Below, piece by piece: positions 10,292-33,060 of a DNA stretch of 64,000 nt. Source of the DNA: Candidatus Versatilivorator sp. GTDB taxonomy: Bacteria; Acidobacteriota; Terriglobia; Versatilivoradales; Versatilivoraceae. The stretch lies in the NCBI GenBank assembly GCA_965198125.1, contig CBDAOQ010000003.1, forward strand, positions 439,890-503,889, given 5' to 3'. The notes beneath the pieces are model-generated. The model was not told the DNA's origin. It made no database searches and saw only the letters and a program-made list of their open reading frames with translations. A program made the translations under genes and the position numbers. Numbering within the stretch: position 1 is the stretch's first letter; every line of letters starts with the position of its first letter.

Positions 10292-11497
10292 ATGAACATC
10301 GACCGCAGAAAGTTTCTGAGTCAGTCTCTGGCAGCTTCCGCCGGCTTGGCAGGACTGCCTTCCCTGGCCGGCGGCCGCCCCTCCAAAGAGAGATATCGTG
10401 TCGGCATCATCGGTTGCGGCCGCATGGGACAGTACTTCGCCGAGGTCTATCGGGCGCTGCCCGACACCGAATTGGTCGCCATTGCCGAGTGGAATCCGGA
10501 ACGGCGCAAGGTTGTGGGAGAACGCTTCGGAGTCAAGGCGCTCTTTAAGGATGTCAACGCCATGCTGAAGGAAGTCGTTCCCGACCTGGCGGCGATCATC
10601 ACGCCCAGCAAGTATATGAAGGAAGCCGTCATCGCCTGTGCCGAAGCCGGGGTCAAGGGTGTTTCCACCGACAAACCCGTGGCCGCCAGGCTGGCTGATG
10701 CCGACGCCATGGTCGAAGCCTGTCGGAAACGGGGAGTCGTTTTTGCAGGCGGCAATCTGCAGCGCGCCATGCCCGAGGTTCAGGAAGCCGGCCAACGCTT
10801 GAACGCGGGTCGATACGGCCAGCCCCTGGGAATGGCCGTGCACGGATTCGGCGGCGAGATCTCCGGCGGCGGTTGTCAGCACATTTCCGTGCTGCGCCTG
10901 TTTGCCGGCGCCGAGGTCGAAGAGGTCATGGCATGGGCCGGGCCTGCGGAGGCCCTCGAGCAGAAAGACGACAAGGGCCTCAACGTCAATGCCCTGTTCC
11001 GAATGAGCCGCGGGCCCGATGTTCAGGTTTTCGGCCTCACCCAACCCTACGGGACCCGGCAGCTCAGCGGGGTGGACGTGTGGAGTGAGGACACCCTGGT
11101 CCGCTGGAAGTGGTCGAAGCCCGAAATCTATCAGGGGACCGGCGGCGGCGGTTCCCGGCGTCTCGTTGACGCAGAGTATCGCCCCTTCTCCTGGCGCCGC
11201 ATCCTGGATGAGGTTCCCGGTCTGCGAAAGAATGACAACTACCTGGTGGCCTCCATCCGTTCCTTTGTGGATGCCGTCGGAAGCGGGAGCGAACTGTGGA
11301 TCTCGGGCCATGACCTCAGGCAGGCTCTCGAGGTGGCCATTGCCTGCAAGGTATCGGCTCTGCAAGGCAATCGTCCCGTCAAGCTCCCTCTGAAGGACCG
11401 ATCCCTGGCGTTGTATCCGAGGCCCTACCGCTGGCTGGGGGGAGACGCCACCGAAAACCCGCAATCGCTTGAAGACGCGGCAGGGGACCCCCTGTGA
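10292..11497 (+). CDS. Gfo/Idh/MocA-family NAD(P)-dependent oxidoreductase with twin-arginine signal peptide
   Basis: MNIDRRKFLSQSLAASAGLAG Tat motif, then the Rossmann segment YRVGIIGCGRMGQYFAEVY. First gene of a co-directional cluster. Confidence 0.8.
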   Translation: MNIDRRKFLSQSLAASAGLAGLPSLAGGRPSKERYRVGIIGCGRMGQYFAEVYRALPDTELVAIAEWNPERRKVVGERFGVKALFKDVNAMLKEVVPDLAAIITPSKYMKEAVIACAEAGVKGVSTDKPVAARLADADAMVEACRKRGVVFAGGNLQRAMPEVQEAGQRLNAGRYGQPLGMAVHGFGGEISGGGCQHISVLRLFAGAEVEEVMAWAGPAEALEQKDDKGLNVNALFRMSRGPDVQVFGLTQPYGTRQLSGVDVWSEDTLVRWKWSKPEIYQGTGGGGSRRLVDAEYRPFSWRRILDEVPGLRKNDNYLVASIRSFVDAVGSGSELWISGHDLRQALEVAIACKVSALQGNRPVKLPLKDRSLALYPRPYRWLGGDATENPQSLEDAAGDPL

Positions 11498-13068
11498 AAC
11501 CTTCTCTGAATCGCCGACAATTCCTGGGCGGAGCCGCCCTGGCGGCCCCCGGCCTGCTGGCCCCCAGCGGGACCGCGGCGGCGGCGCGGCCGCAATCCAC
11601 ACCAAAGCGGGCATCCAGGCCGCGCCGCACCATGTATTTCAATGACGCCCGCCACTACTACCTCTACGCCTTCGAGCCGCCCATGACCATGGAGGACGCC
11701 TGGCGCCCGGTGGACGAACTGGTGGAGACTTCGGTCGACACCCTGATCTACGGCGTGGAAACCGGGGGCGGACTGTTCAGCCACACCAAGGTGGGCGTGC
11801 GGGCCATGTCGCAGACGCGCCCCATCGACAGCGCCCATTACTGGCGGGCCTGGTACAACATGCAGAGCCTGATCGACCGGGGGCTGGACCCCTTGCAGGT
11901 GCTGATCGACCGGGCCCACCAGCGCCAATTGGACTTCATCATCAGCATGCGCATGGGCGGCGCACCCAGGGACCCTCGCTATGTCATCGGCACATCCGGA
12001 CCGGCCGCCGGAGGCGGAGGCCGCCTGGAGAACAATATGGACTTCGCCCATCCCTGGGTCCGGGACACTCAGTTCTCCTGGATGGAAGAACTGGCAAGCT
12101 ACCCGGCCGAAGGCATCGAATTCGATTTCGCCTTCACTCCCTACTATTTCAAGCCGAGCGAGGTCGAACGGCACACACCCCTGATGACTGCCTACGTGCG
12201 CCGGCTGTCGGAGATGATTCGAAGCAAGGGCCAGAACCGGATCGTGGGCGCCCGGGTCTTTCCGACCGAGGCCATGAATCGATCTCTGGGCCTGGACGTA
12301 AAGACCTGGGTTGAAGAGAAACTGGTCGACTACCTGGCGCCTCTCTACTACGGATACTTCCTGCTGGATCCCAATCTGCCTTTCGAGTCGCTGGTCGAAT
12401 TGGCCCGGCCGGCCGGAGCCGAGGTCTTCCCTGTCCTGCAGCCTTACTTCATGCAACACGAGAAGCATGCCAGCTCGGCCATGCTGCGGGCGGCCATCGC
12501 CAACTATTGGGCCAAGGGGGCGGACGGCCTGATTGTGGCTCCCTGGTTCACCTGGCCCTTCCGGGAGGAGGAACGGGCGCTGCTGACCGACATCGGCGAC
12601 CCCGAGGCCGTCAAGGAACGCACCAAGCACCACTTTGTCTCCCCACGGCAGGAGGATGCCGCCGCCCTGGGTTACGATCACCCGCTTCCCCTGCAGTTGG
12701 AGGGCAAGAGCCCCCTGAGTTCATCCGTTCCCTTTTATATCGCGGACGACTGCCGGTCGGACCGGGTGGCGCGAACGAGGCTGCTGTTGCGAGTGCGGAA
12801 CCTGGTGACCGCCGACAACCTGGAGTTGAGCCTCAACGGGAGTTCGCTGGCTGGGGAGCCCATGCGGCGCACCAGCCACCGCTACGACTTCCAATGGCTG
12901 GAGTACACCCTGAGCAAGGTGCTTCCCCGCCCCGGAGAGAACGTGCTGTCTGCCCGTCTGGCCTCGCGGCCGGAGGGACTGGGCGGAGGGGTCACCATTG
13001 ACCAGATGGAGGTGCTGGTCGAATACGCCGGCCCCCAGTCCATATCCGACCGACCCGATGTGTTGTAG
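11494..13068 (+). CDS. Tat-signal TIM-barrel glycoside-hydrolase-like protein, paralog 1 (family unassigned)
   Basis: RRQFLGGAALAAPG Tat motif. Conserved paralog motifs include DGIEFDFAFTPYYF (candidate catalytic Glu). The GTG start overlaps the upstream stop by 4 bp. Confidence 0.7.
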   Translation: MKPSLNRRQFLGGAALAAPGLLAPSGTAAAARPQSTPKRASRPRRTMYFNDARHYYLYAFEPPMTMEDAWRPVDELVETSVDTLIYGVETGGGLFSHTKVGVRAMSQTRPIDSAHYWRAWYNMQSLIDRGLDPLQVLIDRAHQRQLDFIISMRMGGAPRDPRYVIGTSGPAAGGGGRLENNMDFAHPWVRDTQFSWMEELASYPAEGIEFDFAFTPYYFKPSEVERHTPLMTAYVRRLSEMIRSKGQNRIVGARVFPTEAMNRSLGLDVKTWVEEKLVDYLAPLYYGYFLLDPNLPFESLVELARPAGAEVFPVLQPYFMQHEKHASSAMLRAAIANYWAKGADGLIVAPWFTWPFREEERALLTDIGDPEAVKERTKHHFVSPRQEDAAALGYDHPLPLQLEGKSPLSSSVPFYIADDCRSDRVARTRLLLRVRNLVTADNLELSLNGSSLAGEPMRRTSHRYDFQWLEYTLSKVLPRPGENVLSARLASRPEGLGGGVTIDQMEVLVEYAGPQSISDRPDVL

Positions 13069-13069
13069 A

Positions 13070-13105
13070 GGGACAGGATGCGGGCGGGACGCCCGCGCTC
13101 CCAGG
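13070..13105. repeat. Solo terminal repeat of MITE family A
   Basis: GGACAGGATGCGGGCGGGACGCCCGCGCTCCCAGG immediately after the stop of paralog 1. No second TIR nearby. Confidence 0.6.
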
Positions 13106-13204
13106 TGATCCCGTCCCGCCGGTTCCAGCGGATCCGCATGCAGTCGTTGGGACGTGAATAGCTGCACGACGAATCTTGCAAAAGGCTCAAAGGAGTGAAT
13201 CACA

Positions 13205-14905: not shown

Positions 14906-14954
14906 GGCCCCCAATTCCCTCGAGTCCTGATACCCCGGGGTGGTGAAGCAAACT

Positions 14955-16649
14955 ATGAAACGGCGCCGCTTCTTCCAGACTGCCGCGACGGCCGCCCTCG
15001 CCGGTGGGTTGCGCCCTGCTTCCTTGCAAGCGCGGCAGGCGGGAGCCTCCCCTTCGGCTGCCGGCGGGGCAGCCCGCAAGCCCCGCATCATGTTCTACCA
15101 CGACGGCCGTCATCCCCTGATCTACATGTACGAGCCCCCCATGCAAAAGGAGGAGTTTCATTCGGCCGTGGACGAGTTGCTGGGGACCCCGGTGGAAGCC
15201 CTGATGTTCACCATGGGCGACGGCCGCACGGTGTTGCACGACACCCGGGTGGGCGAGCTCTGGGGAGACCACCTCAGGAACAAGAAGTGGCCCCACCTCA
15301 TCTTCCGCCGCGCCTACCAGAACGCCAAGGGCCTGATCCAGGCCGGCCAGGACCCGCTCCGTGTCGTCTTTGACCGGGCCCACCGGCGGGGGATGCTGGT
15401 CTACCCGGTGCTGCTGGTTCAGCAGGGAACCGGAAAGCGCGGGGAGGACACCCGCGCCTCGGAGTTCCGCCTCAACCACCGCCACCTGGAAATCGGCGCC
15501 GGGGGCGGAGTGGATCCGGCCTTCCCCGGTTTCCACGGCCTGGACTTCAAGCACGAGGCGGTGCGCCGGGAGCGGTTCGCCCTGATCGAAGAAACGATCC
15601 GGCGCTACCCGGTGGACGGCTTCGAGCTGCAGCTCAACTACATGCCCTACTACTTCCGGCCCGACGAGGTCGAGCCCGGACGCCGGATCATGACCGAGTG
15701 GATCCGTCGGGTTTACCGGGCGGTGAAGCGAAGCGGGGATGGGCGGGAACTGGTTCTGCGAGTACCGGCCAGCCTGGAGCAGTGTGAATCGGTGGGGCTG
15801 GACATCCGGGAATGGCTGCGGCAAGGCATGGTGGACGTGCTTATCCCGCAGGGGCCCGGCCGCTTCGATCAGATGCTGGACCTGGGGCCGATGGTGTCGG
15901 CGGCGCGAGGGTCCGGCTGCCGCATTCACGGCTACCTTCCCAGCACCGTGGATTCCGACCGCCTGATGGAGTCCACCCTCCCCATCACCCGGGCAGGCGC
16001 CTGCAATCTGTGGGACCAGGGGGTGGACGGGCTCTACGTGGCCCAGTGGTTCAGCACCTGGCCTTACGGGAGCTCCTTCTACGAGAGGTTGCGGGAGCTG
16101 CCCCATCCCGAAGTCATGGCTCCCCGGGACAAGCACTATTTCCTGCAGACGACAACGGGACGCTACCCCGACCGGGCCGGGCGGCAGCTTCCGGCGGAAC
16201 TGGAAGTCAACACGCCGGTGAGCCTGGAATTCAAGATCAGCGACGAACTGCCGCGTTGGGCCAAAACGGGGAGAGTTCACCAGGTCCTCTTGCGGATCCG
16301 GCTGTCCAATACCACCGAGCTGGACCGCATCGCCTTCCGGCTGAACGGAAAGCCCCTCCCCGATTCGAGGTTGCGCAAGATCAACGAAATGTTTAAGCTC
16401 AAGATTCCGCGCTTCTTCCAGTTCGGTTACTGGTACGTTTACAAGCTGGACCCGGACCACTGGCCAATCAGGGGCCTTAACCGCCTGGAGGTGGAACTGA
16501 AGCACCGGGACCCGGAGGTCACGCCTCGGATCGCCGTCAGCAACCTGGAGTTGAAGATCGAATACCTGCTGGGAAAGCACATGCGGCGGGACTCGGAGAC
16601 GGACCTGGGGGCTCGGGAGAGCCGCAACGACAGACATGGAAACGCATGA
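14955..16649 (+). CDS. Tat-signal TIM-barrel glycoside-hydrolase-like protein, paralog 3
   Basis: MKRRRFFQTAATAALAGG Tat motif. Near-duplicate of paralog 2 (same motifs). Confidence 0.75.
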   Translation: MKRRRFFQTAATAALAGGLRPASLQARQAGASPSAAGGAARKPRIMFYHDGRHPLIYMYEPPMQKEEFHSAVDELLGTPVEALMFTMGDGRTVLHDTRVGELWGDHLRNKKWPHLIFRRAYQNAKGLIQAGQDPLRVVFDRAHRRGMLVYPVLLVQQGTGKRGEDTRASEFRLNHRHLEIGAGGGVDPAFPGFHGLDFKHEAVRRERFALIEETIRRYPVDGFELQLNYMPYYFRPDEVEPGRRIMTEWIRRVYRAVKRSGDGRELVLRVPASLEQCESVGLDIREWLRQGMVDVLIPQGPGRFDQMLDLGPMVSAARGSGCRIHGYLPSTVDSDRLMESTLPITRAGACNLWDQGVDGLYVAQWFSTWPYGSSFYERLRELPHPEVMAPRDKHYFLQTTTGRYPDRAGRQLPAELEVNTPVSLEFKISDELPRWAKTGRVHQVLLRIRLSNTTELDRIAFRLNGKPLPDSRLRKINEMFKLKIPRFFQFGYWYVYKLDPDHWPIRGLNRLEVELKHRDPEVTPRIAVSNLELKIEYLLGKHMRRDSETDLGARESRNDRHGNA

Positions 16650-17443
16650 ATCGACGTCACTTCTTACAGGGAGCAGGAATTCTCTTGACGGGCGGTAGCA
16701 GTCTCGACCGGGAAGCTCAGGCTTCCTCCCAAAACGAACGCAGAATCCTGATCACCAGCGGTGAGACGGAGTTGGCCCAGGTCATTGCCGACCACCTCAG
16801 CCGCGACCGCGATGTCCGGCTCACCGGTCTGACGGCTGTCCCGAGCCGTTTCCCCTTCACTGCTTGCCAACTGGATCACGACTCGGCCACCGACGAGCTG
16901 GTGCGGGGCGTGGAGGCCATCGTCCACGTGGCCGAGCCGCCTTCAGGCGCCGGCGAGCGGGAGCAGATCGACCACCTGACCCGCAGGACCTACAACCTGG
17001 CCAGAGCCGCCGTGGACGCCGGGGTCGACCGGCTGCTCTTTCTCAGCACGCTGGAGCTGATGACGGGCTACGACGAGGACTTCCTGGTCAGCGAACGCTG
17101 GCGGCCGCTTCCAACGACCCGGCCGTCCGTACTGGCCAAGCACCTGGGCGAGTACACCTGCCGGGAGTTCGCCCGGGAACAAAAGCTGCAGGTGATGGTT
17201 CTTCGACTCGGCAAGGTGGTCAAGGCCGCGGCCGTCAGGGGGCAGGCCGCCGATCCCCTGTGGGTGGAGGAACGGGAGGCGGCCCAGGCAGTCGCCGGCG
17301 CCCTGGATGCCAAGCTTTCCGACCACGCCCAGGGAGTGGGCCGCTGGAGAATCTTCAACGTGCAGTCGGAGTTCCCCGGGTCGCGCTTTCCGGTCGCGAA
17401 CGCCAAGGGGGCTCTGGGCTATCGGCCCTGGTTCAAGCCCTGA
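16646..17443 (+). CDS. NAD(P)-binding Rossmann-fold protein (atypical SDR / epimerase-like) with Tat signal
   Basis: MNRRHFLQGAGILLTGGSS Tat motif. The ATG overlaps the upstream stop (ATGA), suggesting translational coupling. ILITSGETELAQVIADHL is a nucleotide-binding-like segment. Confidence 0.6.
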   Translation: MNRRHFLQGAGILLTGGSSLDREAQASSQNERRILITSGETELAQVIADHLSRDRDVRLTGLTAVPSRFPFTACQLDHDSATDELVRGVEAIVHVAEPPSGAGEREQIDHLTRRTYNLARAAVDAGVDRLLFLSTLELMTGYDEDFLVSERWRPLPTTRPSVLAKHLGEYTCREFAREQKLQVMVLRLGKVVKAAAVRGQAADPLWVEEREAAQAVAGALDAKLSDHAQGVGRWRIFNVQSEFPGSRFPVANAKGALGYRPWFKP

Positions 17444-17608
17444 GGAGCAGACTTGGCCGGCGGAGCGGTTCCCACGGGGGCGCGCTGAAGTTGCGGGCGC
17501 ATCGAGGACGGAAATGGTTCCGTCCGGATCGTGGGACTCAACCGACGCGATAGCCAAATTGAAGGATCCCGATCCCAACGGACCCGGAGGCCAGTACAAG
17601 GTAAATCC

Positions 17609-18337
17609 ATGAAAGTGCTCATCATCGGCGCCACCGGCTATCTGGGGCCTCACGTGGTCAAGGCTCTGGAGGACCACCACCAACTCCTGCTCACCGACAT
17701 CAAGCCACCCAAGGAGGACACGCCCCATCCCTTCCAACGGGTGGACGTCAGCTCCATGGAGCAGGTCCAGCGGGCCGCCGAGGGCATGGACGCCATCCTC
17801 AACCTTTCGGTGCTGCGGGAGCACCGGCGGATCGCCTTCGACGTGAACTCCCTGGGCTGCTACAACATCATGCGGGCAGCCGTGGACCAGGGGATTCGCC
17901 GGGTCATCAACACCGGGCCCCACTTCACCATCACGGGTCCGCTCTACGAGGGTATCGACCACGGCATCACTCCGGACGTCCCGCCCCACCCCAGCACCAT
18001 CCTCTACGCCTTGACCAAGTCCCTGGGCCAGGAGATCTGCCGGGTGTTCAGCCAGCACCACGACGTCTACGTGCTGGACTACCTGTTCTACAACTTTCGC
18101 GATCCCAAGCAGGTGAAGCGGGGCTCGGGAGGAGTGCCCTTCATCGTCTCCTGGGAAGACGCCGGAGAAGCCTTCCGCCTCGGTCTTGAGATCGAACTGG
18201 ACCGGCTGCCCTCCCGCTGCGAAATCTTCTTCATCTCCGGGGACATGCCCCAAGGGAAGTTCCTCAACGAAAAGACCAGGCGCCTGCTGGGTTTCAAGCC
18301 CAAGGACGACCTGGCCTTCCTTTGGCGACGCCCCTGA
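17609..18337 (+). CDS. NAD-dependent epimerase/dehydratase-family protein
   Basis: MKVLIIGATGYLGPHVVKAL is a classic GxxGxxG Rossmann N-terminus. …ILYALTKSLGQEI contains the YxxxK-type catalytic region. Confidence 0.75.
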   Translation: MKVLIIGATGYLGPHVVKALEDHHQLLLTDIKPPKEDTPHPFQRVDVSSMEQVQRAAEGMDAILNLSVLREHRRIAFDVNSLGCYNIMRAAVDQGIRRVINTGPHFTITGPLYEGIDHGITPDVPPHPSTILYALTKSLGQEICRVFSQHHDVYVLDYLFYNFRDPKQVKRGSGGVPFIVSWEDAGEAFRLGLEIELDRLPSRCEIFFISGDMPQGKFLNEKTRRLLGFKPKDDLAFLWRRP

Positions 18338-18419
18338 CCGCGTTTCGATTGGAATCCATTGAAGCGCCCACGAGGTCGCGGCTCTTGCTCCGCCGGCCTG
18401 CGGGTTAACGGATAATGCC

Positions 18420-19799
18420 ATGATCCATCGCCGTCGTTTATTGAAGACCGCCGCCCTGGGAGCGGGGCTGGCTCCTTTTTCTCTTTCCCTGCTGGCCGAA
18501 GCTCGGGGAAGGATGAAAATCGTCGAGATCGAGGAGCACGAAGTGGTTGCTCCCTATCACGACTACAACGCCGAGGCGCTCTTTCGGTATCACGGACTCT
18601 CCTTGCAGAGACGTGTCATCTACGTGGTCAAGACCGACCTGGGACTGGAGGGTTACGGAGAGAGCGGCGGTCCGCTGCGGAAGGGACGGTACAAGGACTA
18701 CCTGGGCACCGATCCGTTCGACTGGATGGCCGACACCCGGAACCTGCCCATGAACATGGCCGTCTACGACCTCATGGGGAAATTTCTGGGTCTGCCCGCC
18801 TGGAAGCTGCTGGGACCCAAGGTGCGCTCCTGGATACCGGTGGCGGCCTGGACCGTCTCCCGGCCCCCGGAAGAAATGGCGGAGGAAGTGCTTGACGTAT
18901 CCCGGCGGGGCTACCACTGGCTCAAATACCACGTGGATGTGCTGCAGAACGCCATCGATCAGACCGAGGCCATGCAGAAGGTCGCTCCCGCCGGATTCAA
19001 GATTCACTATGACTTCAACGAGGACTCCAATTTCGAAGCGGTCTACCCGGTGTTGCGGGAACTGGAAAAATTTCCCGTCGCCGGACGGATCGAGGATCCC
19101 ATCCGTTCCGAAGATCGCGACGGCTATCGTCTGCTGCGGGAGAAGTGCTCCATCCCCATCCTCATTCACCACGGCCCCCACGACGTCTTCATGAGACACG
19201 GCCTCTGCGACGGGTTCATGGGTGGACATGCCCCGGTGGGCCACGCCATGAAGCTGTCGGCCATGGCGGAGTCGACCAATACGCCTTTCATGCTCCAGCA
19301 GACGGGCGGCATCATCAACCAGGCCTTCCTGGCCCATGAAGTGGCCGTGTTTCCCATGGCCGTCCTGGACCACGTCAACGGGTGCCATCTCTGGAAGGAG
19401 CAGGTGACGCGCGAGGACATGCCCGTAGTGGGGGGAAGCGTCGCGCTCCCGGAAGGACCCGGGCTGGGGATCAGCCTTGACCGGGAGAAACTGAAGCGCC
19501 TGGCGGAAGCCCCGCGGCCCAAACAAACCCGTTTCCTGGTGCGTGTCCGCTATGAAGACGGCCTCAGCATCTACTTCCGGTTCGATCCCGATCTTCCCGG
19601 CGCCAACGTGAGATTCCTCAATCCCCCCGGATTCGGGCAACGATACACGGGCTACGGACCGGATGTCCCTGGACCGGTTCCGGGTTATGCCAATCCGGTG
19701 GTCAGCGACTTCTGGGACGAAACCGGCTCCGCGGAATTCGAGGCCATGTGGGAACGCACGGCCGAAGGCCCGGTCTGGGAGCAATCGGGCAAGCCCTGA
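18420..19799 (+). CDS. Enolase-superfamily (mandelate racemase / muconate lactonizing enzyme-like) protein with Tat-type N-terminal extension, paralog 1
   Basis: MIHRRRLLKTAALGAGLAPF Tat-like leader. MR/MLE barrel motifs follow (KIHYDFNEDSNFEAV; AGRIEDPI; LIHHG). An internal Met (MKIVEIEEHE) offers an alternative cytoplasmic start. Confidence 0.75.
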   Translation: MIHRRRLLKTAALGAGLAPFSLSLLAEARGRMKIVEIEEHEVVAPYHDYNAEALFRYHGLSLQRRVIYVVKTDLGLEGYGESGGPLRKGRYKDYLGTDPFDWMADTRNLPMNMAVYDLMGKFLGLPAWKLLGPKVRSWIPVAAWTVSRPPEEMAEEVLDVSRRGYHWLKYHVDVLQNAIDQTEAMQKVAPAGFKIHYDFNEDSNFEAVYPVLRELEKFPVAGRIEDPIRSEDRDGYRLLREKCSIPILIHHGPHDVFMRHGLCDGFMGGHAPVGHAMKLSAMAESTNTPFMLQQTGGIINQAFLAHEVAVFPMAVLDHVNGCHLWKEQVTREDMPVVGGSVALPEGPGLGISLDREKLKRLAEAPRPKQTRFLVRVRYEDGLSIYFRFDPDLPGANVRFLNPPGFGQRYTGYGPDVPGPVPGYANPVVSDFWDETGSAEFEAMWERTAEGPVWEQSGKP

Positions 19800-19837
19800 C
19801 CGATGCGGCCAGAGGATTCAATTCAAGAGGAGATGCC

Positions 19838-21504
19838 ATGAGACGAAGACGGTTCCTCAAGACAGTCGGCGGCAGCCTGTTGGCCGCCCCCTGGATGGGA
19901 GGCTTGGCCTCGCCCTTTCCGAATCCAGGCTGGAGCCAACCCCTTCCTGCCGGCCATAAAGTCCGCCGCATGCTGTCCAACCACGACGGCGCCATCATGG
20001 GGAGCGACCCTCCGCTCACCGCCGAGCACTTCCGCCAGGTGGTCAGGAGCTACCAGGGAACCCCGGTAGACACCATCTGCTTTTGTCTGGGCGACCGCGA
20101 GGTCTACCACTACGAGACCGAAGTCGCCGAGGTTATCGGCCGCCGGCACGGAACCTTCAAGAGCGACTGGGACTGGCGCGTCTATGAGAATACCCGGCGG
20201 CTCATTGAATCGGGCAAGGGCCCCCTGGCCACCTTTGCCGAGGTGTGCCGGGAGGAAGGCATGGGCCTGTTCGGCTCCTTCCGAATGAACAGCCACTACG
20301 GCGTGGATCCCGCCTCCCCCCACCATAGCGAGTTCCGGCTCAAGCACCCCCAATGGCTGATCGGGCACCCCGCCGGCTATTCCAAGGAGAGCAAGGAATT
20401 TGGAATCCGAATGGGCTTGAACTACGCCATCCCGGAAGTTCGCGAGCACATGGCGGCCACCATCACGGAGGTCTTCACCCGATTCCGGGTGGACGGCGTG
20501 GAACTGGACTTCATGCGGCACCCGGCCTTTTTCAAGCTGCACGAAGCGGTGGAGAATCACCACCACATGACCGACATGCTGCGGCACATCAAACGGCGGA
20601 GGGACGAGGTCAGCCGGGAGACCGACCGGAAGATCGAACTGGCGATGCGGGTGCCGCCGACCTTCGCCGATGCCTGCGGGTGGGACTGGACGTGCGTACC
20701 TGGATGCGGGAGGGCCTGGTGGACCTTCTCATCGCGGGAGGCGGGTTCATTCCCTTCGACATGCCCTTCGAGTCGTTCGTGGAGGCGGCCCGCGGCACCG
20801 AATGCCGGGTCTTGGGCGGACTGGAGCTGCTCCGCTACATGAGCGGACCCACTGCCGACCTGGACATCACTCGAGCCATCGCCATGCGTTTCTGGCAGGG
20901 TGGGGCCGACGGACTTCAGTTGTTCAACTATTTCGCCCAACCGACGGATTGGAAGCGGCAATTGTTCCAGGAAATCGGCGACCCTGAGCGGCTGTCCTCT
21001 CTGGACAAACGCTACCAGATGGACAAGCGGCGCTGGTTCCCCGGCGGATGGAACAACCACGGCGCCGCCTTTTCATCGGCGGTGCCGGCGGTGCAGCTCC
21101 CGGTAGACCTCACCGAGACGCCGCCCGGAGGCGGCCCCCGCCTGCGATTCAGGATTTCCGATGACCTGGAATCGGCCACGCGCAAGGGCATCCTGGACAG
21201 CGTCATACTGCGGCTGCTGTTCGAGAACCGCACTCTCCAGGACCAGGTCGAGGTCCATCTCAACGGGGAACGCCTGCCCGACAAGCAGCCCGGCACCTTC
21301 GACCTGGTCTCCTACTGGAACAGGACTCGCGGTCCTTACCGGGGAGAGTATCTGACGGGGACCCTGGAATACGACGTCGCCTGCCCGCCCCTGAAACAGG
21401 GAATCAACGTCATCCAGGTTCGACTGGTGAAACGCACCCCCAACCTGACCGCGCCCCTGAGACTGGGCCTGGTGGAGGCGTCGGTCAACTACAAGTCCGG
21501 TTGA
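19838..21504 (+). pseudogene. Tat-signal TIM-barrel glycoside-hydrolase-like protein, paralog 4, interrupted by a single-base frameshift near 20665-20690
   Basis: The N-terminal part (19838-20842 frame, DGVELDFMRHPAFF) and the C-terminal part (20353-21504 frame, …GLDVRTWMREGLVDLLIAGG…, ADGLQLFNYF) align end-to-end with the other paralogs. The frame switches at the GGG run in gcctgcgggtgggactgg. Either a true pseudogene or an indel error. Confidence 0.65.
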
Positions 21505-21523
21505 TCGGGGAATAGGAGACGTC

Positions 21524-22903
21524 ATGGCTCTCACTCACCGGCGCGGTTTTCTTCTTCAGTCCGGGTTGGCCGCGGCCGGCCTGCCCTTCTGGTCGTCGCC
21601 GCTGTTTTCGCAGTTGGCCCGCAAGATCAGGATCACCGAGATCGAAGCCCACGAGATCCTTCCCCCCTACCACGACTACCATGCCGAGTGGCTGTTTCGC
21701 TACCAGGGGCTGCACAGCCGGTTGCGGACCATCTACATCGTCAAGACCGATGCGGGCATCGAGGGCTACGGGGAGAATTGGGGGTCTCCCTGGAGTGACT
21801 TCAAAGACTTTCTGGGCACCACTCCCTTCGACTGGATCAACGACCCTCGGAACCTGCCCATGAACATGGCGGTCTACGACCTGATGGGCAAGGCTCTGAG
21901 GCTGCCGGCCTGGAAACTGATCGGGCCTCGGGTGCGGTCCTGGGTCCCCATCGCCGCCTGGACGATGTCGCAACCTCCCCGGCAGATGGCGGAAGAAGTC
22001 AGGCAACTGTCGAAACGCGGTTATCGCTGGATGAAATACCACGTGGACGTCCTGCAGAACGTGGTCGATCAGACTGCCGCCATGCAGGAGGTGGCCCCCC
22101 GGGGATTTCGAGTCCACTACGACTTCAACGAGGATTCCAACTTCGAAGCCGTCTATCCGGTCTTGAAGGAGCTGGAACGATTTCCCATTGCGGGGCGGAT
22201 CGAAGACCCCATCCGATCCATCGACCAGGACGGCTATCGGCTGCTTCGCGAAAAGTGCGCCATTCCGATCATGATTCACCATGGCCCGGCCGACGTCTTC
22301 ATGCGCAAGGGGCTTTCCGACGGGTTCATGTCCAGCCACGCGGGGGTCGGCTCAGCCATGAAACTGGCGGCCATGGCGGAAAGCACCAACACTCCCTTCC
22401 TGCTGCAGATGGCCGGCGGCACCATCAACCAGGCCTTCCTGGCGCATCAAGCGTCCGTCTTTCCCATGGCTACCCTGGCTCATATAGACCTGTGCAACGT
22501 CTGGGCGGAAGACGTGACCGTAGAAGCCATGCCGGTGGTGGGCGGCAGCGTGGCGGTTCCGAGGGGGCCCGGTCTGGGGGTGCGTATAGACCGGAAGAAG
22601 CTGGAGCGGCTGGCCCAAGCGCCTCGACCCAAACAGACACGCTTCCTGGTCAGGGTGCGCTACCGTCCGGAGCCGCACCTCTATTTCCGTTACGACCCCG
22701 ATGCCGAGGGCGCCAACATCAAGTTCCTGAGTCCGCCGGGATTCGGGCGGCGGTACTCCGGACACGGTCCCCACGTGCCGGGACCGGTCCCTGGCTATGC
22801 CAATCCGGTGGAGACCGACTTCTGGGATGAAGTGGGCACGGCGGAGTTCGAACGGATGTGGAAACGGACCGAAGCCGGCCCCGTCTGGACGCAGGGGTCG
22901 TAG
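21524..22903 (+). CDS. Enolase-superfamily (MR/MLE-like) protein with Tat-type N-terminal extension, paralog 2
   Basis: MALTHRRGFLLQSGLAAAGLPFW Tat-like leader. There is no internal Met before the conserved KIRITEIEAHE core. About 70% identical to paralog 1. Confidence 0.75.
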   Translation: MALTHRRGFLLQSGLAAAGLPFWSSPLFSQLARKIRITEIEAHEILPPYHDYHAEWLFRYQGLHSRLRTIYIVKTDAGIEGYGENWGSPWSDFKDFLGTTPFDWINDPRNLPMNMAVYDLMGKALRLPAWKLIGPRVRSWVPIAAWTMSQPPRQMAEEVRQLSKRGYRWMKYHVDVLQNVVDQTAAMQEVAPRGFRVHYDFNEDSNFEAVYPVLKELERFPIAGRIEDPIRSIDQDGYRLLREKCAIPIMIHHGPADVFMRKGLSDGFMSSHAGVGSAMKLAAMAESTNTPFLLQMAGGTINQAFLAHQASVFPMATLAHIDLCNVWAEDVTVEAMPVVGGSVAVPRGPGLGVRIDRKKLERLAQAPRPKQTRFLVRVRYRPEPHLYFRYDPDAEGANIKFLSPPGFGRRYSGHGPHVPGPVPGYANPVETDFWDEVGTAEFERMWKRTEAGPVWTQGS

Positions 22904-22910
22904 CGGATAG

Positions 22911-23055
22911 TGGAGAGTGAAGAGTGGTCAGCCGAGGGCTTCGGGAACAGGCAAGCGCCTGATGACCTGACTTATTTGAAGGACTGCGCCGAGACCGACG
23001 AGATGCTTTGCGTGTCGATCAAATAGCTCTTCACTCTTCACTCTCCACTCTCCAC
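22911..23055. repeat. MITE family E copy (~145 bp) with TIR GTGGAGAGTGAAGAGTGG
   Basis: Ends at 22911-22928 and, inverted, at 23027-23055. A partial reverse copy lies at 51322-51447. Confidence 0.6.
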
Positions 23056-23139
23056 TATTCACTTTTCACCTAGGCGCGCCGCCGTCCCATACGACGGGGC
23101 GGCTCATACGGGCGAAACCGGGGTGCTCCAGGAAAGTGG

Positions 23140-24387
23140 TCAGAATCGTCCCAGGCTGAGCGGCTCCAAAGGCAGGGACAGCGGTTCCCGGCAGATCATC
23201 TCGGCCATCAGTTTGCCGCTGATGGGGCCGTGGGTGTACCCCAGCATGGCATGACCGGTGGAGAGGTACACGTGAGGATGGCGGGGTAGCCGGTCGATGA
23301 TGGGAAGCCCGTCCGGCGTACAGGGGCGCAAGCCGCACCAGTGTTCGACGTTGCCGGGGTTGGCGGCCCCCGCGATCACCTCCAGGGCTCCCCGCTGAAT
23401 GGCCTCGGTGCGGGTTGGGTTCAAGCTCAGATCGATTCCGGCAAACTCCATGGTCCCCGCAAACCGCAGGCGATTGCCGATGGGGGTCACCCCCACTTTT
23501 CTTTCCACGTGGATCAAGGGAATCTCCGGGCTCACCGCCGGCCGGTCCATGGTCAGGCTGTACCCCTTTCCAGCCTGGACCGGGACCCGGACTCCAAGCT
23601 GACGGGCCAGCAGAGGTGTCCAGGAACCCATGGCCAGGACGATTTCGCGGGCGCGGAAGTTTCCCTGGCTGGTTCGGACTCCGGCAGGTCGTCCTCCCTC
23701 CAGCAACCACCCCGTCACCTCGGTACCGGTCCTGACGGCCACCCCGAGCTTCCTGACGGCTTCTCCCAGGCCGGTGACGAATCGATAGGAGCTGCCATGG
23801 GCGTCCTCGGCGGAATAGAGAGCGCCCACCACCCTCCGATTGAGCGCGGGCTCCAGTTCCCGGGCCTGGTCTCCCGTCAGAACCTTGAGATCCAGGCCGT
23901 GCCTGGCCATGATCTCGGCCTCCTGCCTTCCTTCTTCCAGTCCGGCCGCCGTGGTGTAGACACTCATCAACCCCCGCTGCTTGAAGTCGAATCTCAGGCC
24001 TTCAGAGGCGGCCAGCTCTCGAAACAAGAGCAGGCTGGCGCGCCCCAGGTCCCGCAGAACGGGGATGGCTCGTTCCATGGGCCGCCGGCGGCAAGAGGCG
24101 GCGAACTGCAGCAGCCAGGAAAGGAGTTGCCAGTCCACCCGGGGTCGGATCAACAAGGGACTGTCTTCCTTGAGCATCCACTTCAGGGACTTGCCGATGA
24201 CTCCCGGCGCCGGGACAGGCATGGCGTGGCTGGACACGATCATGCAGGCGTTGCCATAGGAGCAGCCTGAGCAGATCTCCCCCTTCTCGATCAAAGTGAC
24301 CCGGCAGCCCCTTTTGGACAGGTAGTAGGCCGTGCAGACCCCCACCGATCCCCCACCAATCACCAGGACATCCGATTCTTCCGCCAT
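23140..24387 (-). CDS. FAD-dependent oxidoreductase, D-amino-acid dehydrogenase (DadA)-like
   Basis: VLVIGGGSVGVCTAYYLSKRG FAD-binding N-terminus. About 415 aa with DAO-family layout. Confidence 0.8.
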   Translation of the reverse strand: MAEESDVLVIGGGSVGVCTAYYLSKRGCRVTLIEKGEICSGCSYGNACMIVSSHAMPVPAPGVIGKSLKWMLKEDSPLLIRPRVDWQLLSWLLQFAASCRRRPMERAIPVLRDLGRASLLLFRELAASEGLRFDFKQRGLMSVYTTAAGLEEGRQEAEIMARHGLDLKVLTGDQARELEPALNRRVVGALYSAEDAHGSSYRFVTGLGEAVRKLGVAVRTGTEVTGWLLEGGRPAGVRTSQGNFRAREIVLAMGSWTPLLARQLGVRVPVQAGKGYSLTMDRPAVSPEIPLIHVERKVGVTPIGNRLRFAGTMEFAGIDLSLNPTRTEAIQRGALEVIAGAANPGNVEHWCGLRPCTPDGLPIIDRLPRHPHVYLSTGHAMLGYTHGPISGKLMAEMICREPLSLPLEPLSLGRF

Positions 24388-24547
24388 CGCCTCGACCTGA
24401 CCAAAATAGGCGGCCTTCTACACCTGACTGCCGGCATTCGGCATGATCATCTAACTTGCAAGTCCATCGACTCACAAAGTATTCATTATAGAGAGGCACC
24501 TAAATGGTGTACACTTCAGTGCTGGATAAGGAGGGCAGGACACGATT

Positions 24548-24835
24548 ATGGCTCACGCAAACGTAACCAAGACGGAGAGGATCAATCTACGGCTCAACGA
24601 AGTGACGAAGCGGAGGATCGAACGAGCCGCTTCATTTGAGGGAAAAACCGTTAGCGGATTTATTGTGTCCAGCGCGCTGAGCTACGCTGAGAAGACCATT
24701 CAAATACACGAAACGATGGCCCTCAACCGACGTGATGCCATGCGTTTCTTCGATGCCATCGTGAATCCGCCGGCTCTGAACGACAAACTCAGCACGGCCA
24801 TGGGGGAACACGGAAAGCGCGTTGTCTCGCGATGA
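24548..24835 (+). CDS. Type II antitoxin, DUF1778 / ribbon-helix-helix (TacA-like)
   Basis: 95 aa with RINLRLNEVTKRRIERAASFEGKTVSGFIVSSAL, the DUF1778 signature. It overlaps the downstream GNAT gene by 4 bp. Local GC is visibly lower than surroundings. Confidence 0.8.
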   Translation: MAHANVTKTERINLRLNEVTKRRIERAASFEGKTVSGFIVSSALSYAEKTIQIHETMALNRRDAMRFFDAIVNPPALNDKLSTAMGEHGKRVVSR

Positions 24836-25335
24836 CTGAGCCGGACACACTCGTGATCGAGCCGCTCGGGAAGCATCATGACCGAACGGTTTTTTCTTGC
24901 GGACTTCCAGAACTGGACCGGTACCTTGCACGTCAGGCTGGTCAGGATGTGCGGCGTCGTATCGCCAGGGTGTTTGTCTGCACCGCCAAGGATTCCGATA
25001 CTGTCCTTGGTTATTACACGCTGAGCGCCCTTGCGGTAGACCTGCGCACCCTACCCAAAGAATTGTCTCGAAAGCTCCCCCGGCATCCCGTGCCCTGCGC
25101 CCTCATCGGTCGACTCGCCGTCGATCGGTCGGTTCGAGGGCACGGCTTGGGTCGCATGCTTCTCGTCGATGCGATCAAGCGAACCAAGGGCGCCAGTGAC
25201 ATCATGGGTATCCACGCCGTCGTCGTGGACGCCAAAAACAATACGGCGAGACAATTCTACGAGGGATTCGGTTTCATCCCTTTGCAGCAATACCCCATGA
25301 GGCTGTTTCTGCCGCTCGGCCCCATCCACCTGTAG
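24832..25335 (+). CDS. Type II toxin, GNAT acetyltransferase (TacT/AtaT-like)
   Basis: 167 aa with GYYTLSALAVDL…LIGRLAVDRSVRGHGLGRMLL, the GNAT acetyl-CoA motif seen in TacT-type toxins. Paired with the DUF1778 gene. Confidence 0.8.
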   Translation: MTEPDTLVIEPLGKHHDRTVFSCGLPELDRYLARQAGQDVRRRIARVFVCTAKDSDTVLGYYTLSALAVDLRTLPKELSRKLPRHPVPCALIGRLAVDRSVRGHGLGRMLLVDAIKRTKGASDIMGIHAVVVDAKNNTARQFYEGFGFIPLQQYPMRLFLPLGPIHL

Positions 25336-25420
25336 GATTCCGCTTCAAATTGACATCCGAGTTCGGCTTACGAGCAAATGATCGAGGCTGCGTCTCGGAA
25401 CGTCAACCAAACCGGCCCGC

Positions 25421-27160
25421 TCAGGGACGAGAAAGTGCGGCGCGGCTGATGGTCCGGGTCTCGGACATTCTGGTGACCAGTTCCACCCGCCTGATCCTCA
25501 GGGGCTTGTCTGAACCGGCCCCCCGGTAGTTCAGTTGAATGGACACCTGGTTCCGGCCACTCTTGAGGGCCGCGATGGGGACCGGAAACCGCAAGGCCTT
25601 GAAATGCATGTCGAAGGGTTTGTCGGCAGGAAATCCGATCATGCCGTTACCCGGCAAGGGGTCGATGCGGTAACCCACGTTTTCCCAGCGGGAAGTCACA
25701 TCGACTCCCGCGGGCTCCAGCACCGTGGTATCCACCGAAACCGTCAAACGATCCCCCGGCATGGAATAATCCATCGCCATCCAGAGCTCGGCCGTCTTGG
25801 GCTTGCTGGTCTTGAAGTCGTCGGCCACCGGCATGTGAAGCGATTTGGCTCCATCGGCCACGTTCAAATTGAAGGGGACCGGAGCACCCTTGGAAACCGT
25901 GTTGTAGCGCACATAGTCGGCGCCGGGGGCCCGGGGGCTGGCTTCGAACCGCTGAACGGCCGTGTAGTGCTTGTCCTTCCTCCTCATCCGTTTGGGATCG
26001 GCGATCTCATTCAGCAGGTGCTTCCGCCAACTCCCGTAGAGAAACCAGTTGAAGGTGTAAAGACCATCGGCGCCGTCTCGCCACAGGTTGGCGGCGCTCC
26101 CTCGAATGACCTCATCCGGACTGACGCGGTAGCTGTTCCCGTAACTGTAGAGACTGGGATAGATGGGGAGCTGGCGCGACTTCATCAGGCCTCGAAACTC
26201 GCTGAGCGTCGGCAACTCGGTCAACCCCTGCCCCAGGATCAGCATGTCTGCCAGATCCTCGTCGATCCACTTTTCAATTTCAAAGCCGCCGAGCTGGCAC
26301 CATTCGATCTTCTCCGGGATGCGGACGGCAATCTCGATGGGCCGGCCCCGGCGGCTGGCCTTCTGATTGAGGCTCTTCCGGATGGCGCGCATGAACTCGG
26401 TCAGGTATTTTCCGTTCTCTCGCTCGGTGCCCCGTTGGAAGTAGAGCGAGTGCCGCAACCAGTCCAGCTCGATGCCGTCGAAATCCCAGCGATCGAAAAA
26501 CTCCTCGGCCACTTTGAGCTTCAGGGCCCGGACTCTGGGATGAGCGAAGTTCAGGGCCGTCCACCAGTCGAGATCGTCTACCAGCCAGTCGGGATTGATC
26601 CGCTTGAAGGTGGGCAGTTCCGGGTTGGGCAAGGTGCCTCTGGCGTGCTGACCGTCGTGGGTGTCATTCATCCTGAGGGAAACGAACGCGTCCAGACCTC
26701 GCTTGCGGCACTCCTCCACGATCACCGCGGGAGGATTGTGGCCGGCGTCCGCCAGGCTCTTGGGGTTGAGATACTGGTCCTTGGGGTCGACTTCGACCCC
26801 GCCGTGCCAGGTCTTGCTCTCCGGGAACTTGAACCGGTCCGCCTCACCCGGCCACTCCAGCACGTTGCTCTGGTATTCGGCCACGTTGCCGCTGCCGAAA
26901 CTGAACATCAGGGTGTCCACGCCGGTGTTGTCAATCGGAGTGAAGACCAGAGAGGTGAACTGCTCCCGTGTGAGGGGGCCATAGGAATGGGGCAGGGCGG
27001 TTCGGCCCCAGCAATGAATCGTGGACCCATCCCAATTGAACAGAAGCCGCCGTTTTTTGCCGGCGGCTCCAGCCCGCTTGGGCTTGGCCCCGGCATGCAA
27101 CAACTGAGCGAGTCCACCCGCTCCGACAATCATGAAGCTCCGTCTGGTGATCGATTGCAT
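25421..27160 (-). CDS. Tat-signal TIM-barrel glycoside-hydrolase-like protein, paralog 5 (most divergent)
   Basis: MQSITRRSFMIVGAGGLAQ Tat motif. Shares FVSLRMNDTHD, DGIELDWLRHSLYF and ADGLYTFNWFLYG with paralogs 1-4. Confidence 0.7.
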   Translation of the reverse strand: MQSITRRSFMIVGAGGLAQLLHAGAKPKRAGAAGKKRRLLFNWDGSTIHCWGRTALPHSYGPLTREQFTSLVFTPIDNTGVDTLMFSFGSGNVAEYQSNVLEWPGEADRFKFPESKTWHGGVEVDPKDQYLNPKSLADAGHNPPAVIVEECRKRGLDAFVSLRMNDTHDGQHARGTLPNPELPTFKRINPDWLVDDLDWWTALNFAHPRVRALKLKVAEEFFDRWDFDGIELDWLRHSLYFQRGTERENGKYLTEFMRAIRKSLNQKASRRGRPIEIAVRIPEKIEWCQLGGFEIEKWIDEDLADMLILGQGLTELPTLSEFRGLMKSRQLPIYPSLYSYGNSYRVSPDEVIRGSAANLWRDGADGLYTFNWFLYGSWRKHLLNEIADPKRMRRKDKHYTAVQRFEASPRAPGADYVRYNTVSKGAPVPFNLNVADGAKSLHMPVADDFKTSKPKTAELWMAMDYSMPGDRLTVSVDTTVLEPAGVDVTSRWENVGYRIDPLPGNGMIGFPADKPFDMHFKALRFPVPIAALKSGRNQVSIQLNYRGAGSDKPLRIRRVELVTRMSETRTISRAALSRP

Positions 27161-33051: not shown

Positions 33052-33060
33052 CCCCGGCAA

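Follow-up and report, generated by a model that had tools for sequence, protein, structure and literature searches.

The 64,000-nt stretch of contig CBDAOQ010000003.1 analyzed here (the window), which comes from an uncultured Terriglobia bacterium, Candidatus Versatilivorator sp., carries a gene cluster built around five paralogous proteins, P1-P5, all of them homologs in sequence and fold of the sialidase family GH156. Gene order was established by gene calling guided by GC content at third codon positions (GC3) together with the list of open reading frames (ORFs) of the window, and domains were assigned by a Pfam scan. On the forward strand, the cluster begins with G1 (10292..11497), a Gfo/Idh/MocA oxidoreductase (Pfam GFO_IDH_MocA, 1.7e-22) with the leader MNIDRRKFLSQ... 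of the twin-arginine translocation (Tat) type, for which an alternative ATG at 10265 is also open. It is followed on the same strand by P1 (11494..13068), P2 (13205..14905), and the P2 paralog P3 (14955..16649; a GTG at 14940 is also open), then by two proteins of the short-chain dehydrogenase/reductase (SDR) type, E1 (16646..17443; Pfam Epimerase, 1.1e-11) and the extended-SDR-like E2 of about 245 amino acids (17609..18337, alternative start 17531; assigned by Pfam), and finally by the enolase-superfamily (MR_MLE) protein M1 (18420..19799; Pfam MR_MLE_C, 6.4e-22, 78.8 bits), the frame-interrupted P4 (19838..21504), and the M1 paralog M2 (21524..22903). P5 (25421..27160) lies on the reverse strand. 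Stop and start codons overlap by 4 nt both at G1/P1 and at P3/E1. This layout agrees with an earlier note on the window, which had listed the ORFs of P1, P2, P3, and P5, the overlapping codons, and the interleaved Gfo/Idh/MocA protein, two SDRs (one of them Tat-led), and two MR/MLE paralogs.

Profile, single-sequence, and model-based structural searches agreed with one another, and we therefore regard the family as GH156 or a close offshoot of it. GH156 proteins consist of a (beta/alpha)8 barrel and an eight-stranded beta-sandwich, and the founding member, EnvSia156, is an inverting exo-alpha-sialidase (PMC6254351; PMC6811678). A profile built from P2, P3, P1, P5, and 57 homologs (profile A1) found EnvSia156 (6RZD) as its best match in the Protein Data Bank (PDB) with E=3.7e-48, the next match being Cwp19 (1.9e-8). 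Used as single queries, P5, P2, and P1 also had 6RZD as the top match (9.1e-25, 4e-14, and 1.7e-7, respectively), and for P2 and P1 it was the sole significant one. AlphaFold2 (AF2) models of P2 (pLDDT 84.9) and P5 (pLDDT 83.9) contained a TIM barrel and a C-terminal beta-sandwich, bearing out the fold that the earlier note had proposed for a glycoside-hydrolase-like family, and Foldseek placed EnvSia156 first for both models (P2, E 4e-38, TM scores 0.72/0.82; P5, E=7.8e-34, TM 0.69/0.80). The top Foldseek matches, 6S04, 6S00, and 6RZD, spanned both domains (about 550 aligned columns, TM 0.69-0.83), whereas Cwp19 was a distant second (TM 0.47 vs 0.72), aligned over the barrel only. P1, P3, and P4 were counted into the GH156 fold by homology to the modeled P2 and P5. 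The opinion that no CAZy family could be assigned is overturned by these searches; P4 and P5 are new GH156 members of the ordinary kind, and the paralogs do not constitute a new family.

The Pfam and NCBIfam route did not lead to this identification. The NCBIfam scan of the paralogs gave no match, and the Pfam GHL10 scores (PF02638, threshold 27.9 bits) were borderline, at 27.2 bits for P1, 23.9 for P2, and 26.3 for P3, with none for P5; only the N-terminal fragment of P4 passed the threshold (34.0 bits). P5 scored 23.2 bits against GH18, below the 29.6-bit cut-off, and its motif, FDGIELDWLRH, has Leu at what we take to be the position of the catalytic Glu of GH18 (motif DxxDxDxE). With P2 as the query, 2490 clusters at the 50% identity level were matched at E<=1e-3 and 170 at the stricter E<=1e-30. 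Both the P2 and the P5 orthogroup are highly conserved, and homologs are annotated as hypothetical throughout; one JGI homolog carries the name YddW-type lipoprotein.

The five paralogs are homologous to one another, with pairwise BLASTP E-values from 1e-21 to 0 and identities of 22-30%, except for P2 and P3, which share 63%; BLASTP and alignment likewise confirmed the shared motifs that had been quoted for them. M1 and M2 are 69% identical. P2 and P3 had been taken for a recent duplication, which they are not, because two relatives (L009 and L049) whose P2 is only 74% identical to that of the window already hold both copies. P4, described before as one ORF, spans 1667 nt and changes frame near 20673, where a 1-nt deletion turns CCC into CC: the window reads GATGCC-TG, and five related metagenome-assembled genomes (MAGs), all with an intact P4, read GATGCCCTG. 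The break is either an assembly error or a fresh, strain-specific pseudogene. In the most divergent syntenic relative (L004/L008, OZ244053.1), G1, M1, and two neighboring genes encoding FG-GAP and GNAT proteins are each split into 2-3 pieces, which suggests many indels in that assembly and makes indel errors in assemblies of this kind plausible.

The two sialidase-type paralogs retain the active site of the founding member. In EnvSia156, Asp14 is the general base and His134 the general acid, Arg129, Arg202, and Asn346 clamp the C1 carboxylate, Arg246 is buried, and Trp164, Phe203, Phe278, and Trp279 form an aromatic platform at the +1 subsite (PMC6811678). EnvSia156 was absent from the 510 proteins retrieved; to tabulate these positions, its residues 27-383 were rebuilt from the HMMER profile alignment and aligned with the paralogs and their homologs. 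P5 and 31 homologs carry Arg129, His134 (within RMNDTH in P5), Arg202 (Lys in one homolog), Asn346, and Arg246, and Trp164 is kept in P5 and 30 of the 31 homologs. P4 has all four arginine and asparagine residues, with the histidine displaced by one residue (RMNSH). The same full set as in P5 is found in a further subfamily, starting IIYNWDGAPHGY, which does not occur in the window and adjoins P1/P2 orthologs in Latescibacterota and Gemmatimonadota (L001, L030, L036, L037, L050, L054, L055, L079, and others). Judged by these residues, P4 and P5 probably function as exo-sialidases or as related glycosidases for ulosonic acids.

P1 and P2/P3 represent two strongly conserved subfamilies in which the fold and the aspartate are kept and the acid and the clamp are replaced. 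In the P1 subfamily, Arg129 is Arg, His134 is absent, Arg202 is replaced by Phe, Tyr, Ala, or Ser, Asn346 by Pro or a gap, and Arg246 is Arg (Lys in three Chloroflexota homologs); P1 itself has Phe and Pro at the Arg202 and Asn346 positions. In the P2/P3 subfamily, assessed on 27 sequences (P2, P3, and the 25 P2-group homologs with E-values as good as that of homolog P0119 or better), Arg129 is Leu, His134 falls in a gap, Arg202 is Tyr, Asn346 is His, Gln, Tyr, or Ser, and Arg246 is Arg, the clamp positions reading Leu/Tyr/His in P2 and Leu/Tyr/Gln in P3. Across P1-P3 the His134 position is a gap or Gly/Ala/Ser. The position of the Asp base is occupied in all five paralogs (HDG, NWDG, or NDA). 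The equivalence of P2 Asp50 to Asp14 is drawn from an ungapped offset in the profile alignment (EnvSia156 L27 = P2 M63), from the model, where Asp50 ends strand beta-1 (45-50), and from its near-invariance in the family alignment, because a PDB query consisting of the first 141 residues of mature P5 was aligned over residues 114-134 only.

P1 and P2 share the motif D-[GA]-R-H-x(3)-Y-x-[YF]-E-P-P, which the sialidase types do not have, and the invariant polar residues of the P2 group include H49, D50, R52, H53, D89, R91, Q154, Q155, Q224, Y227, D334, and D336, several of them at strand ends or in the following loops of the modeled barrel. The Glu of the DGxE motif, which the earlier note had put forward as catalytic, is indeed invariant but has no catalytic role in the GH156 mechanism, where Asp14 and His134 act instead (PMC6811678). 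A characterized family with a known substrate has thus been found for P4 and P5, but not for P1-P3. Of 51 CAZy GH156 sequences, 19 were noted to be without the dyad or triad and as ones that "may target neutral sugars"; such non-canonical sequences were excluded from the published analysis, and when it was written, sialidase activity had been demonstrated for only two of the CAZy members (Mann et al., bioRxiv 10.1101/2022.06.28.497753).

Nine proteins of the cluster, namely G1, P1-P5, E1, M1, and M2, begin with an RR-x-F-L type motif followed by a hydrophobic stretch rich in Ala, Gly, and Leu. Tat signals typically combine the motif S/T-R-R-x-F-L-K with a moderately hydrophobic h-region and an A-x-A-type cleavage site, and it is the motif and the h-region that are seen on these nine. 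E2 and the flanking lyase of the DHDPS family, HpcH aldolase, DAO-type oxidase, both GNAT proteins, and PhyH-type dioxygenase have no such leader, so that the claim that almost every step is exported goes too far. Among relatives, substitutions in the leader codons number 148, 78, and 249 at codon positions 1, 2, and 3, respectively, and the presence of the leader follows taxonomy. A Tat-like leader precedes 24 of 27 P2/P3-type copies in Acidobacteriota, one of three in Planctomycetota, and none of 57 in Poribacteria, Latescibacterota, Gemmatimonadota, Chloroflexota, Spirochaetota, Handelsmanbacteria, and Verrucomicrobiota, where the leaderless P2 orthologs begin M-[PSA]-K-P-R-x-M-F-Y-H-D-G. 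The RR-x-F-L motif and the hydrophobic stretch recur in Acidobacteriota orthologs down to 58-66% identity and in Pirellulaceae. The same split between leader and no leader repeats in G1, M1, P1, and the sialidase-type paralogs, the subfamily starting IIYNWDGAPHGY is likewise leaderless in most other phyla, and the M1 family falls into length classes of about 460 amino acids with the leader and about 420 without it. Because of the codon-position bias and the taxonomic distribution, the leaders appear to be real Tat signals that are translated. By the same distribution, the enzyme set would be periplasmic in the present lineage and would stay in the cytoplasm in most of the phyla examined; export, as predicted from the leaders, is lineage-specific.

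Among the accessory enzymes, G1 has orthologs of 52-78% identity that adjoin P1/P2 orthologs in several phyla and carry a leader only in Acidobacteriota and Pirellulaceae. PDB searches with E2, M1, and G1 returned only generic superfamily relatives, and NCBIfam gave no equivalog-level name for G1, E1, E2, M1, M2, the DHDPS lyase, the HpcH aldolase, or the DAO-type oxidase. The two SDRs differ in integrity. E1 is degenerate, its Gly-rich motif reading ITSGETELA and its catalytic Tyr being lost (SVLAK), and all of its orthologs likewise have a Tat leader and lack both the Gly-rich motif and the Tyr (ITSGE[TS][EN]LA, [SA][VL]L[AG]K). E2 is intact, having both the dinucleotide-binding TGxxGxxG motif and the catalytic YxxxK of extended SDRs (GATGYLG and YALTK), and so are its orthologs, which are leaderless as well; its PDB matches were weak ones to UDP-glucose 4-epimerase (1.6e-8) and uronate dehydrogenase (3RFT, 1.6e-6). 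Since a led, degenerate E1 accompanies a leaderless, intact E2 in all orthologs examined, the pattern suggests that E1 may be a pseudo-enzyme that escorts E2, which would be co-exported through Tat as a hitchhiker.

In M1 and M2, the MR_MLE_C barrel keeps Asp198 and Glu225 (M1 numbering, alignment with PDB 2QDE), and a C-terminal extension of about 100 amino acids is conserved. Barrels of the MLE and MR subgroups carry three acidic metal ligands together with KxK (beta-2) and a beta-6 Lys or with His-Asp acid/base residues. Relative to structures of the MLE type, the KxK motif of M1 reads K169-Y-H171, His250-His251 stands at the third metal ligand, and the beta-6 Lys is replaced by Gly beside the invariant His270; these substitutions are invariant across 15 aligned family members. 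M1 and M2 form a distinct enolase-superfamily subfamily.

Further enzyme genes flank the cluster. The DHDPS-family lyase (1024..1923, reverse strand; Pfam DHDPS, 8.8e-62), which is syntenic in relatives, and an HpcH/HpaI-family class II aldolase (8856..9611, reverse; Pfam, 6e-22) are present as the earlier note had stated, and so are, far from the cluster, a second HpcH aldolase (61709-62482, reverse) and an aldo/keto reductase (60703-61680). The sugar-phosphate isomerase that had been placed at 60-63 kb was not recovered: no such domain occurred in the genes scanned, and the ORF at 62695-63477 (reverse) has no Pfam match. Unrelated genes, among them ones for a transposase, a two-component system, and CoA enzymes, stand between the cluster and the 60-63 kb genes. 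For the HpcH protein of the cluster, the HpaI, GarL, and rhamnonate aldolase models were equally weak and far below their cut-offs. Between M2 and P5 lie an FAD-dependent oxidoreductase of the DAO type (23140..24387, reverse; Pfam DAO, 9.7e-74), which reached 303 bits against a cut-off of 383 with the NCBIfam D-amino-acid dehydrogenase model PRK00711, and a small GNAT acetyltransferase (24832..25335, forward; Pfam). Beyond P5 follows a PhyH-type Fe(II)/2-oxoglutarate dioxygenase (28428..29450, reverse; Pfam PhyH, 3.7e-18). A hydroxyproline-type route (DAO, DHDPS, and enolase) and a route from ketodeoxynonulosonic acid (KDN) to mannonate were considered, and neither is claimed.

The nearest relatives of the window, at 93-95% amino-acid identity, are MAGs of Terriglobia and Ca. 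Versatilivorator, which identifies the organism as an acidobacterium and removes the possible planctomycete origin raised before; a literature search for the name "Versatilivorator" gave no match. In close relatives the cluster is syntenic from the DHDPS gene to M2, and the synteny takes in the DAO-type gene and P5 wherever the retrieved flank is long enough. Orthologous sets, all of them in MAGs, are spread over at least nine phyla, the other carriers being Latescibacterota, Poribacteria, Gemmatimonadota, Dehalococcoidia/SAR202, Planctomycetota, Spirochaetia, Handelsmanbacteria, and a verrucomicrobium, and across nine phyla the P2 subfamily maintains 57-72% identity. The carrier MAGs include ones from Lake Tanganyika and station ALOHA, and isolate names suggest a sponge origin for some; expressed GH156 genes have been reported in a sponge study.

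A scan of one genome per species yielded 80 loci, and gene partners were counted within +/-10 kb of the P2 ortholog at the 74 non-syntenic ones. At least one further GH156-like gene was present at 46 of these 74 loci, a sialidase-type paralog at 34, and a P1-type gene at 21. Gfo/Idh/MocA genes were found at 19 (eight of them G1 orthologs at >=50% identity), MR_MLE genes at 15, and PhyH-type dioxygenase genes at 14 (L022, L024-L026, L029, L031, L033, L065-L067, L072, L073, L075, and L076), while DHDPS and SDR genes occurred at two loci each and an HpcH gene at one. From these counts, the stable core is a combination of several GH156 subfamilies with an oxidoreductase, often together with an enolase-like gene, the aldolase link being specific to a few lineages. 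Individual loci illustrate the variety of partners: a leaderless set of SDR, MR_MLE, Gfo, P2, and GH156-like genes in Poribacteria; three paralogs with an AP_endonuc_2 protein, an FG-GAP protein, DHDPS, and a heparinase II/III on a 3.8-Mb metagenome contig; BNR_2, a sodium-solute symporter (SSF), Gfo, P2, a TRAP transporter, and DHDPS at L087; and an amidase, GNAT, HpcH, an SGL lactonase, a sulfatase, P1, and P2 at L088. PhyH homologs near P2 orthologs share 54-56% identity with the protein of the window in Latescibacterota and 36-38% in Poribacteria, and because they recur there, the dioxygenase is possibly an accessory of the same functional set.

Taken together, we consider it probable, with moderate confidence, that the locus is a conserved catabolic cluster of an uncultured Terriglobia bacterium, built on five GH156 paralogs, with nine of its proteins predicted to be exported through Tat. 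P5, and P4 if intact, would act as periplasmic exo-glycosidases trimming a terminal sialic acid or other 2-keto-3-deoxy (ulosonic) acid from a glycan, and P1-P3 would be glycosidases with a modified mechanism acting on another sugar, either neutral or with its carboxylate placed elsewhere. G1 and E2 might oxidize the released sugars, and M1/M2 might dehydrate or cycloisomerize the resulting acids or lactones, all of these steps being periplasmic in this lineage after export of the folded, cofactor-loaded proteins through Tat. Once imported into the cytoplasm, 2-keto-3-deoxy acids would then be split by the NanA-like lyase and the HpcH aldolase. Established here are the family assignments, the patterns of active-site residues, the leader sequences, and the counts of co-occurring genes; substrate and reactions of such a sugar-acid route are inferred.

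Several observations weigh against this reading. No transporter was detected among the genes scanned between 70 and 31,510. P1-P3 have neither the acid nor the clamp, so that calling them hydrolases extrapolates from the fold and one Asp, and P4 may be a pseudogene in this genome. Curated NCBIfam dehydratase models scored far below their cut-offs on M1 and M2, and "dehydratase" is an unproven name for them because they are missing the third acidic metal ligand of the MLE subgroup as well as two lysines, the second one of KxK and that of beta-6. The best NCBIfam model for the DHDPS protein, PRK04147 (NanA), reached 208 bits against a cut-off of 281, with the KdgD models lower. The aldolase linkage is not conserved beyond close relatives (HpcH at 1/74 loci, DHDPS at 2/74, any aldolase at 3/74); in this genome itself, the dehydratase-like and aldolase genes of the route first proposed do occur together. 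Finally, the Pfam TAT_signal model gave only 14-16 bits on isolated leaders, against a threshold of 22.7, and on only three of the nine.

A bolder version of the favored reading, which we advance tentatively and hold to be the less likely outcome, is that the GH156-derived enzymes, the Gfo-type oxidoreductase, the SDR, and the enolase-like proteins moved to the periplasm as a unit by acquiring Tat leaders, in Acidobacteriota and in one Pirellulaceae MAG, that E1 serves purely as a Tat escort for E2, and that the P1 and P2 subfamilies evolved a new D-x-R-H apparatus for a non-sialic substrate. If this were true, M1 and M2 would be the first Tat-exported enolase-superfamily enzymes; a text search of the literature for Tat-targeted enolase-superfamily proteins found none, only three incidental co-mentions.

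Of the competing explanations, the one that fares best, although we judge it unlikely, is that P1-P3 have left glycoside hydrolysis altogether and catalyze, together with G1 and M1, for example a metal-dependent isomerization, epimerization, or elimination on a small sugar or sugar acid, in a pathway of soluble metabolites that most phyla would run in the cytoplasm. It would account for the orthologs being leaderless in seven phyla, for whole orthogroups collapsing to one or two clusters at 50% identity, and for the invariant His-, Asp-, and Arg-rich segments (HDGRH, DSDR) that stand in place of the sialidase residues, and it fits the oxidoreductase G1 being the tightest cross-phylum partner. 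However, every characterized relative is either a glycosidase (GH156) or a lytic transglycosylase (Cwp19), the Asp serving as general base has been kept, and the metal site is hypothetical.

Rather improbable is the view that P1-P3 are catalytically dead GH156 paralogs serving as binding or partner subunits, for instance in heterodimers with the sialidase types. The loss of the His acid and of the carboxylate clamp would be expected from it, and EnvSia156 is a homodimer with one continuous cleft joining both active sites (PMC6811678); in addition, P1 and P2 orthologs are often adjacent, and at the 34 loci counted above the P2 ortholog has a sialidase-type paralog as a neighbor within 10 kb. 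Against this stand the strong conservation of P2 across nine phyla with its many invariant polar residues, a pattern that suits an active site better than a binding surface, and the 28 of 74 loci where no second GH156-like gene lies within 10 kb.

The interpretation given in the earlier note, an unassignable glycoside-hydrolase-like family within a dehydratase-to-aldolase route exported almost entirely through Tat, now seems improbable. The borderline Pfam scores, the empty NCBIfam scan, and the hypothetical annotation of the homologs are what it would lead one to expect, and the nine leaders and the enolase-like and aldolase genes of the window are compatible with it, but the strong and specific match to EnvSia156 in sequence and fold largely refutes the word "unassignable", and the aldolases, the DAO-type oxidase, and E2 are leaderless, with aldolases seldom co-occurring elsewhere.

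Very improbable is that the leaders are artefacts of an upstream start choice and that the proteins are cytoplasmic here too. P2 does have in-frame Met45/Met46 exactly where the leaderless orthologs start, and the TAT_signal model is sub-threshold or silent; nevertheless, the third-position bias in the leader codons, the persistence of the motif and hydrophobic stretch in distant Acidobacteriota orthologs and in Pirellulaceae, the 4-nt stop/start overlaps, which suit the upstream starts, and the existence of 460- and 420-amino-acid forms in the M1 family all speak for translated leaders. The poorest candidate, which we regard as having next to no likelihood, is that the paralogs are GHL10-type enzymes acting on peptidoglycan glycan strands in cell-wall remodeling (like DigH/YddW or Cwp19), because, although PF02638 is the sole Pfam family matched (24-34 bits vs 27.9), Cwp19 the second-best structural match, and one homolog YddW-named, the match to GH156 is stronger by tens of orders of magnitude and takes in both domains (TM 0.72 vs 0.47), most orthologs are leaderless and hence cytoplasmic, and the gene context points to catabolism and not to the cell wall.

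The surroundings of the cluster contain further features. Upstream lie a 977-amino-acid FG-GAP repeat protein (1961..4894, reverse; Pfam FG-GAP_3, 5e-71) with a Sec-like hydrophobic N-terminal segment, whose gene is a conserved neighbor in close relatives (syntenic in L005-L008, L034, and L049), and a GNAT-domain protein (7086..8342, forward; Pfam Acetyltransf_9) that is syntenic in relatives as well. Between them lies an IS481-type transposase (5648-7003, reverse; rve, HTH_28, LZ_Tnp_IS481); in related MAGs the gap between the two genes is only about 200-700 bp, and this insertion is therefore apparently specific to the present genome. Between the HpcH gene and G1, a 160-amino-acid ORF (9675-10157, reverse) without a family match is putatively coding and partly conserved in relatives, its counterpart in L004 bearing only a faint BNR_2 mark. 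Just past the cluster, 29471-31510 (reverse) encodes a 679-amino-acid beta-propeller protein of the BNR/Asp-box, Sortilin-Vps10 type; BNR repeats also occur in classical sialidases, and no sialidase domain was detected in this protein. A Planctomycetes-like block follows at 31612-43748, with two DUF1501 proteins, one PSCyt2/PSD1 (DUF1549/DUF1553) protein, a 932-amino-acid PPC-domain protein, and one protein with PSCyt1 plus WD40. Farther on, a 633-amino-acid ORF with a TTG start (48420-50321, forward) occupies a stretch at 48.2-51.4 kb without a GC3-called gene, and a single ORF at 53602-55368 (forward) joins a DruA-like (Druantia) N-terminal region to DDE_Tnp_1-associated and DDE transposase domains. 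Scanning the window for Rfam families and tRNA genes gave no match.

The new elements described here are the P1-P3 subfamilies, the atypical Tat-led proteins related to enolase, the pairing of E1 with E2, and the predicted shift of compartment throughout the lineage. GH156 has very few characterized members, and two abundant, strongly conserved subfamilies with a rebuilt active site and named gene partners offer targets in the search for new glycosidase specificities. The phylum-level split between led and leaderless orthologs constitutes a natural experiment on the change of a pathway's compartment through Tat, and the list of Tat cargo would extend to the enolase superfamily. The genes are carried by uncultured Acidobacteriota, Poribacteria, Latescibacterota, Gemmatimonadota, and Chloroflexota. 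Should the sugar-acid steps truly be periplasmic, carbon-processing models for these lineages would have to be revised.

Compared with EnvSia156 (6RZD, 6S00, and 6S04), the paralogs share the barrel and the beta-sandwich, and P4 and P5 also share the Asp, the His (displaced by one residue in P4), the clamp, Arg246, and Trp164, with P5-group homologs being about 32-36% identical to it over about 275 residues. In contrast, P1-P3 have another set of conserved motifs in place of the acid and clamp, and all five are Tat-led and lie among oxidoreductase and enolase-like genes, a setting for which the accessible portions of the EnvSia156 descriptions give no counterpart. P1-P3 resemble the non-canonical GH156 entries (Mann et al., bioRxiv 10.1101/2022.06.28.497753) in being members without the carboxylate clamp, and they go beyond those entries in that two subfamilies are now set out together with the residues substituted in them, their conservation across phyla, and their partner genes. 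The GHL10 enzymes (PF02638, DUF187), such as Cwp19 (5OQ2) and E. coli DigH (YddW), have a distantly related TIM barrel, reflected in the weak Pfam scores, but no matching C-terminal domain, and they differ in gene context and localization. A sialic-acid (Nan) catabolic cluster would comprise the lyase NanA, NanK/NanE or NagA/NagB, and a sialic-acid transporter; of the lyase and the transporter, which were the components assessed, the locus recalls the former, the best model of its DHDPS protein being NanA although below the cut-off, and the genes scanned from 70 to 31,510 do not supply the latter.

In composition, the whole set resembles non-phosphorylative or oxidative sugar-acid routes, in which uronate dehydrogenase (Udh) and an enolase-superfamily cycloisomerase or dehydratase are followed by KdgD, of the DHDPS family, or GarL, of the HpcH family; in another such route, rhamnonate or fuconate dehydratase works with an HpcH aldolase, and the known pathways are cytoplasmic. 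The same four superfamilies stand together here, and E2 is of Udh size with its weak Udh match; unlike in those routes, the matches lie far below curated cut-offs, and M1/M2 do not have the canonical Lys residues and third acidic ligand. As for export, Tat is known to carry cofactor-containing cargo such as the periplasmic glucose-fructose oxidoreductase (GFOR) of Zymomonas, and subunits of hydrogenases and dimethyl sulfoxide (DMSO) reductase travel as hitchhiker pairs. The E1/E2 pair, as seen from the sequences, resembles such a carrier with its passenger, and G1, like GFOR, is a Gfo/Idh/MocA protein with a Tat leader.

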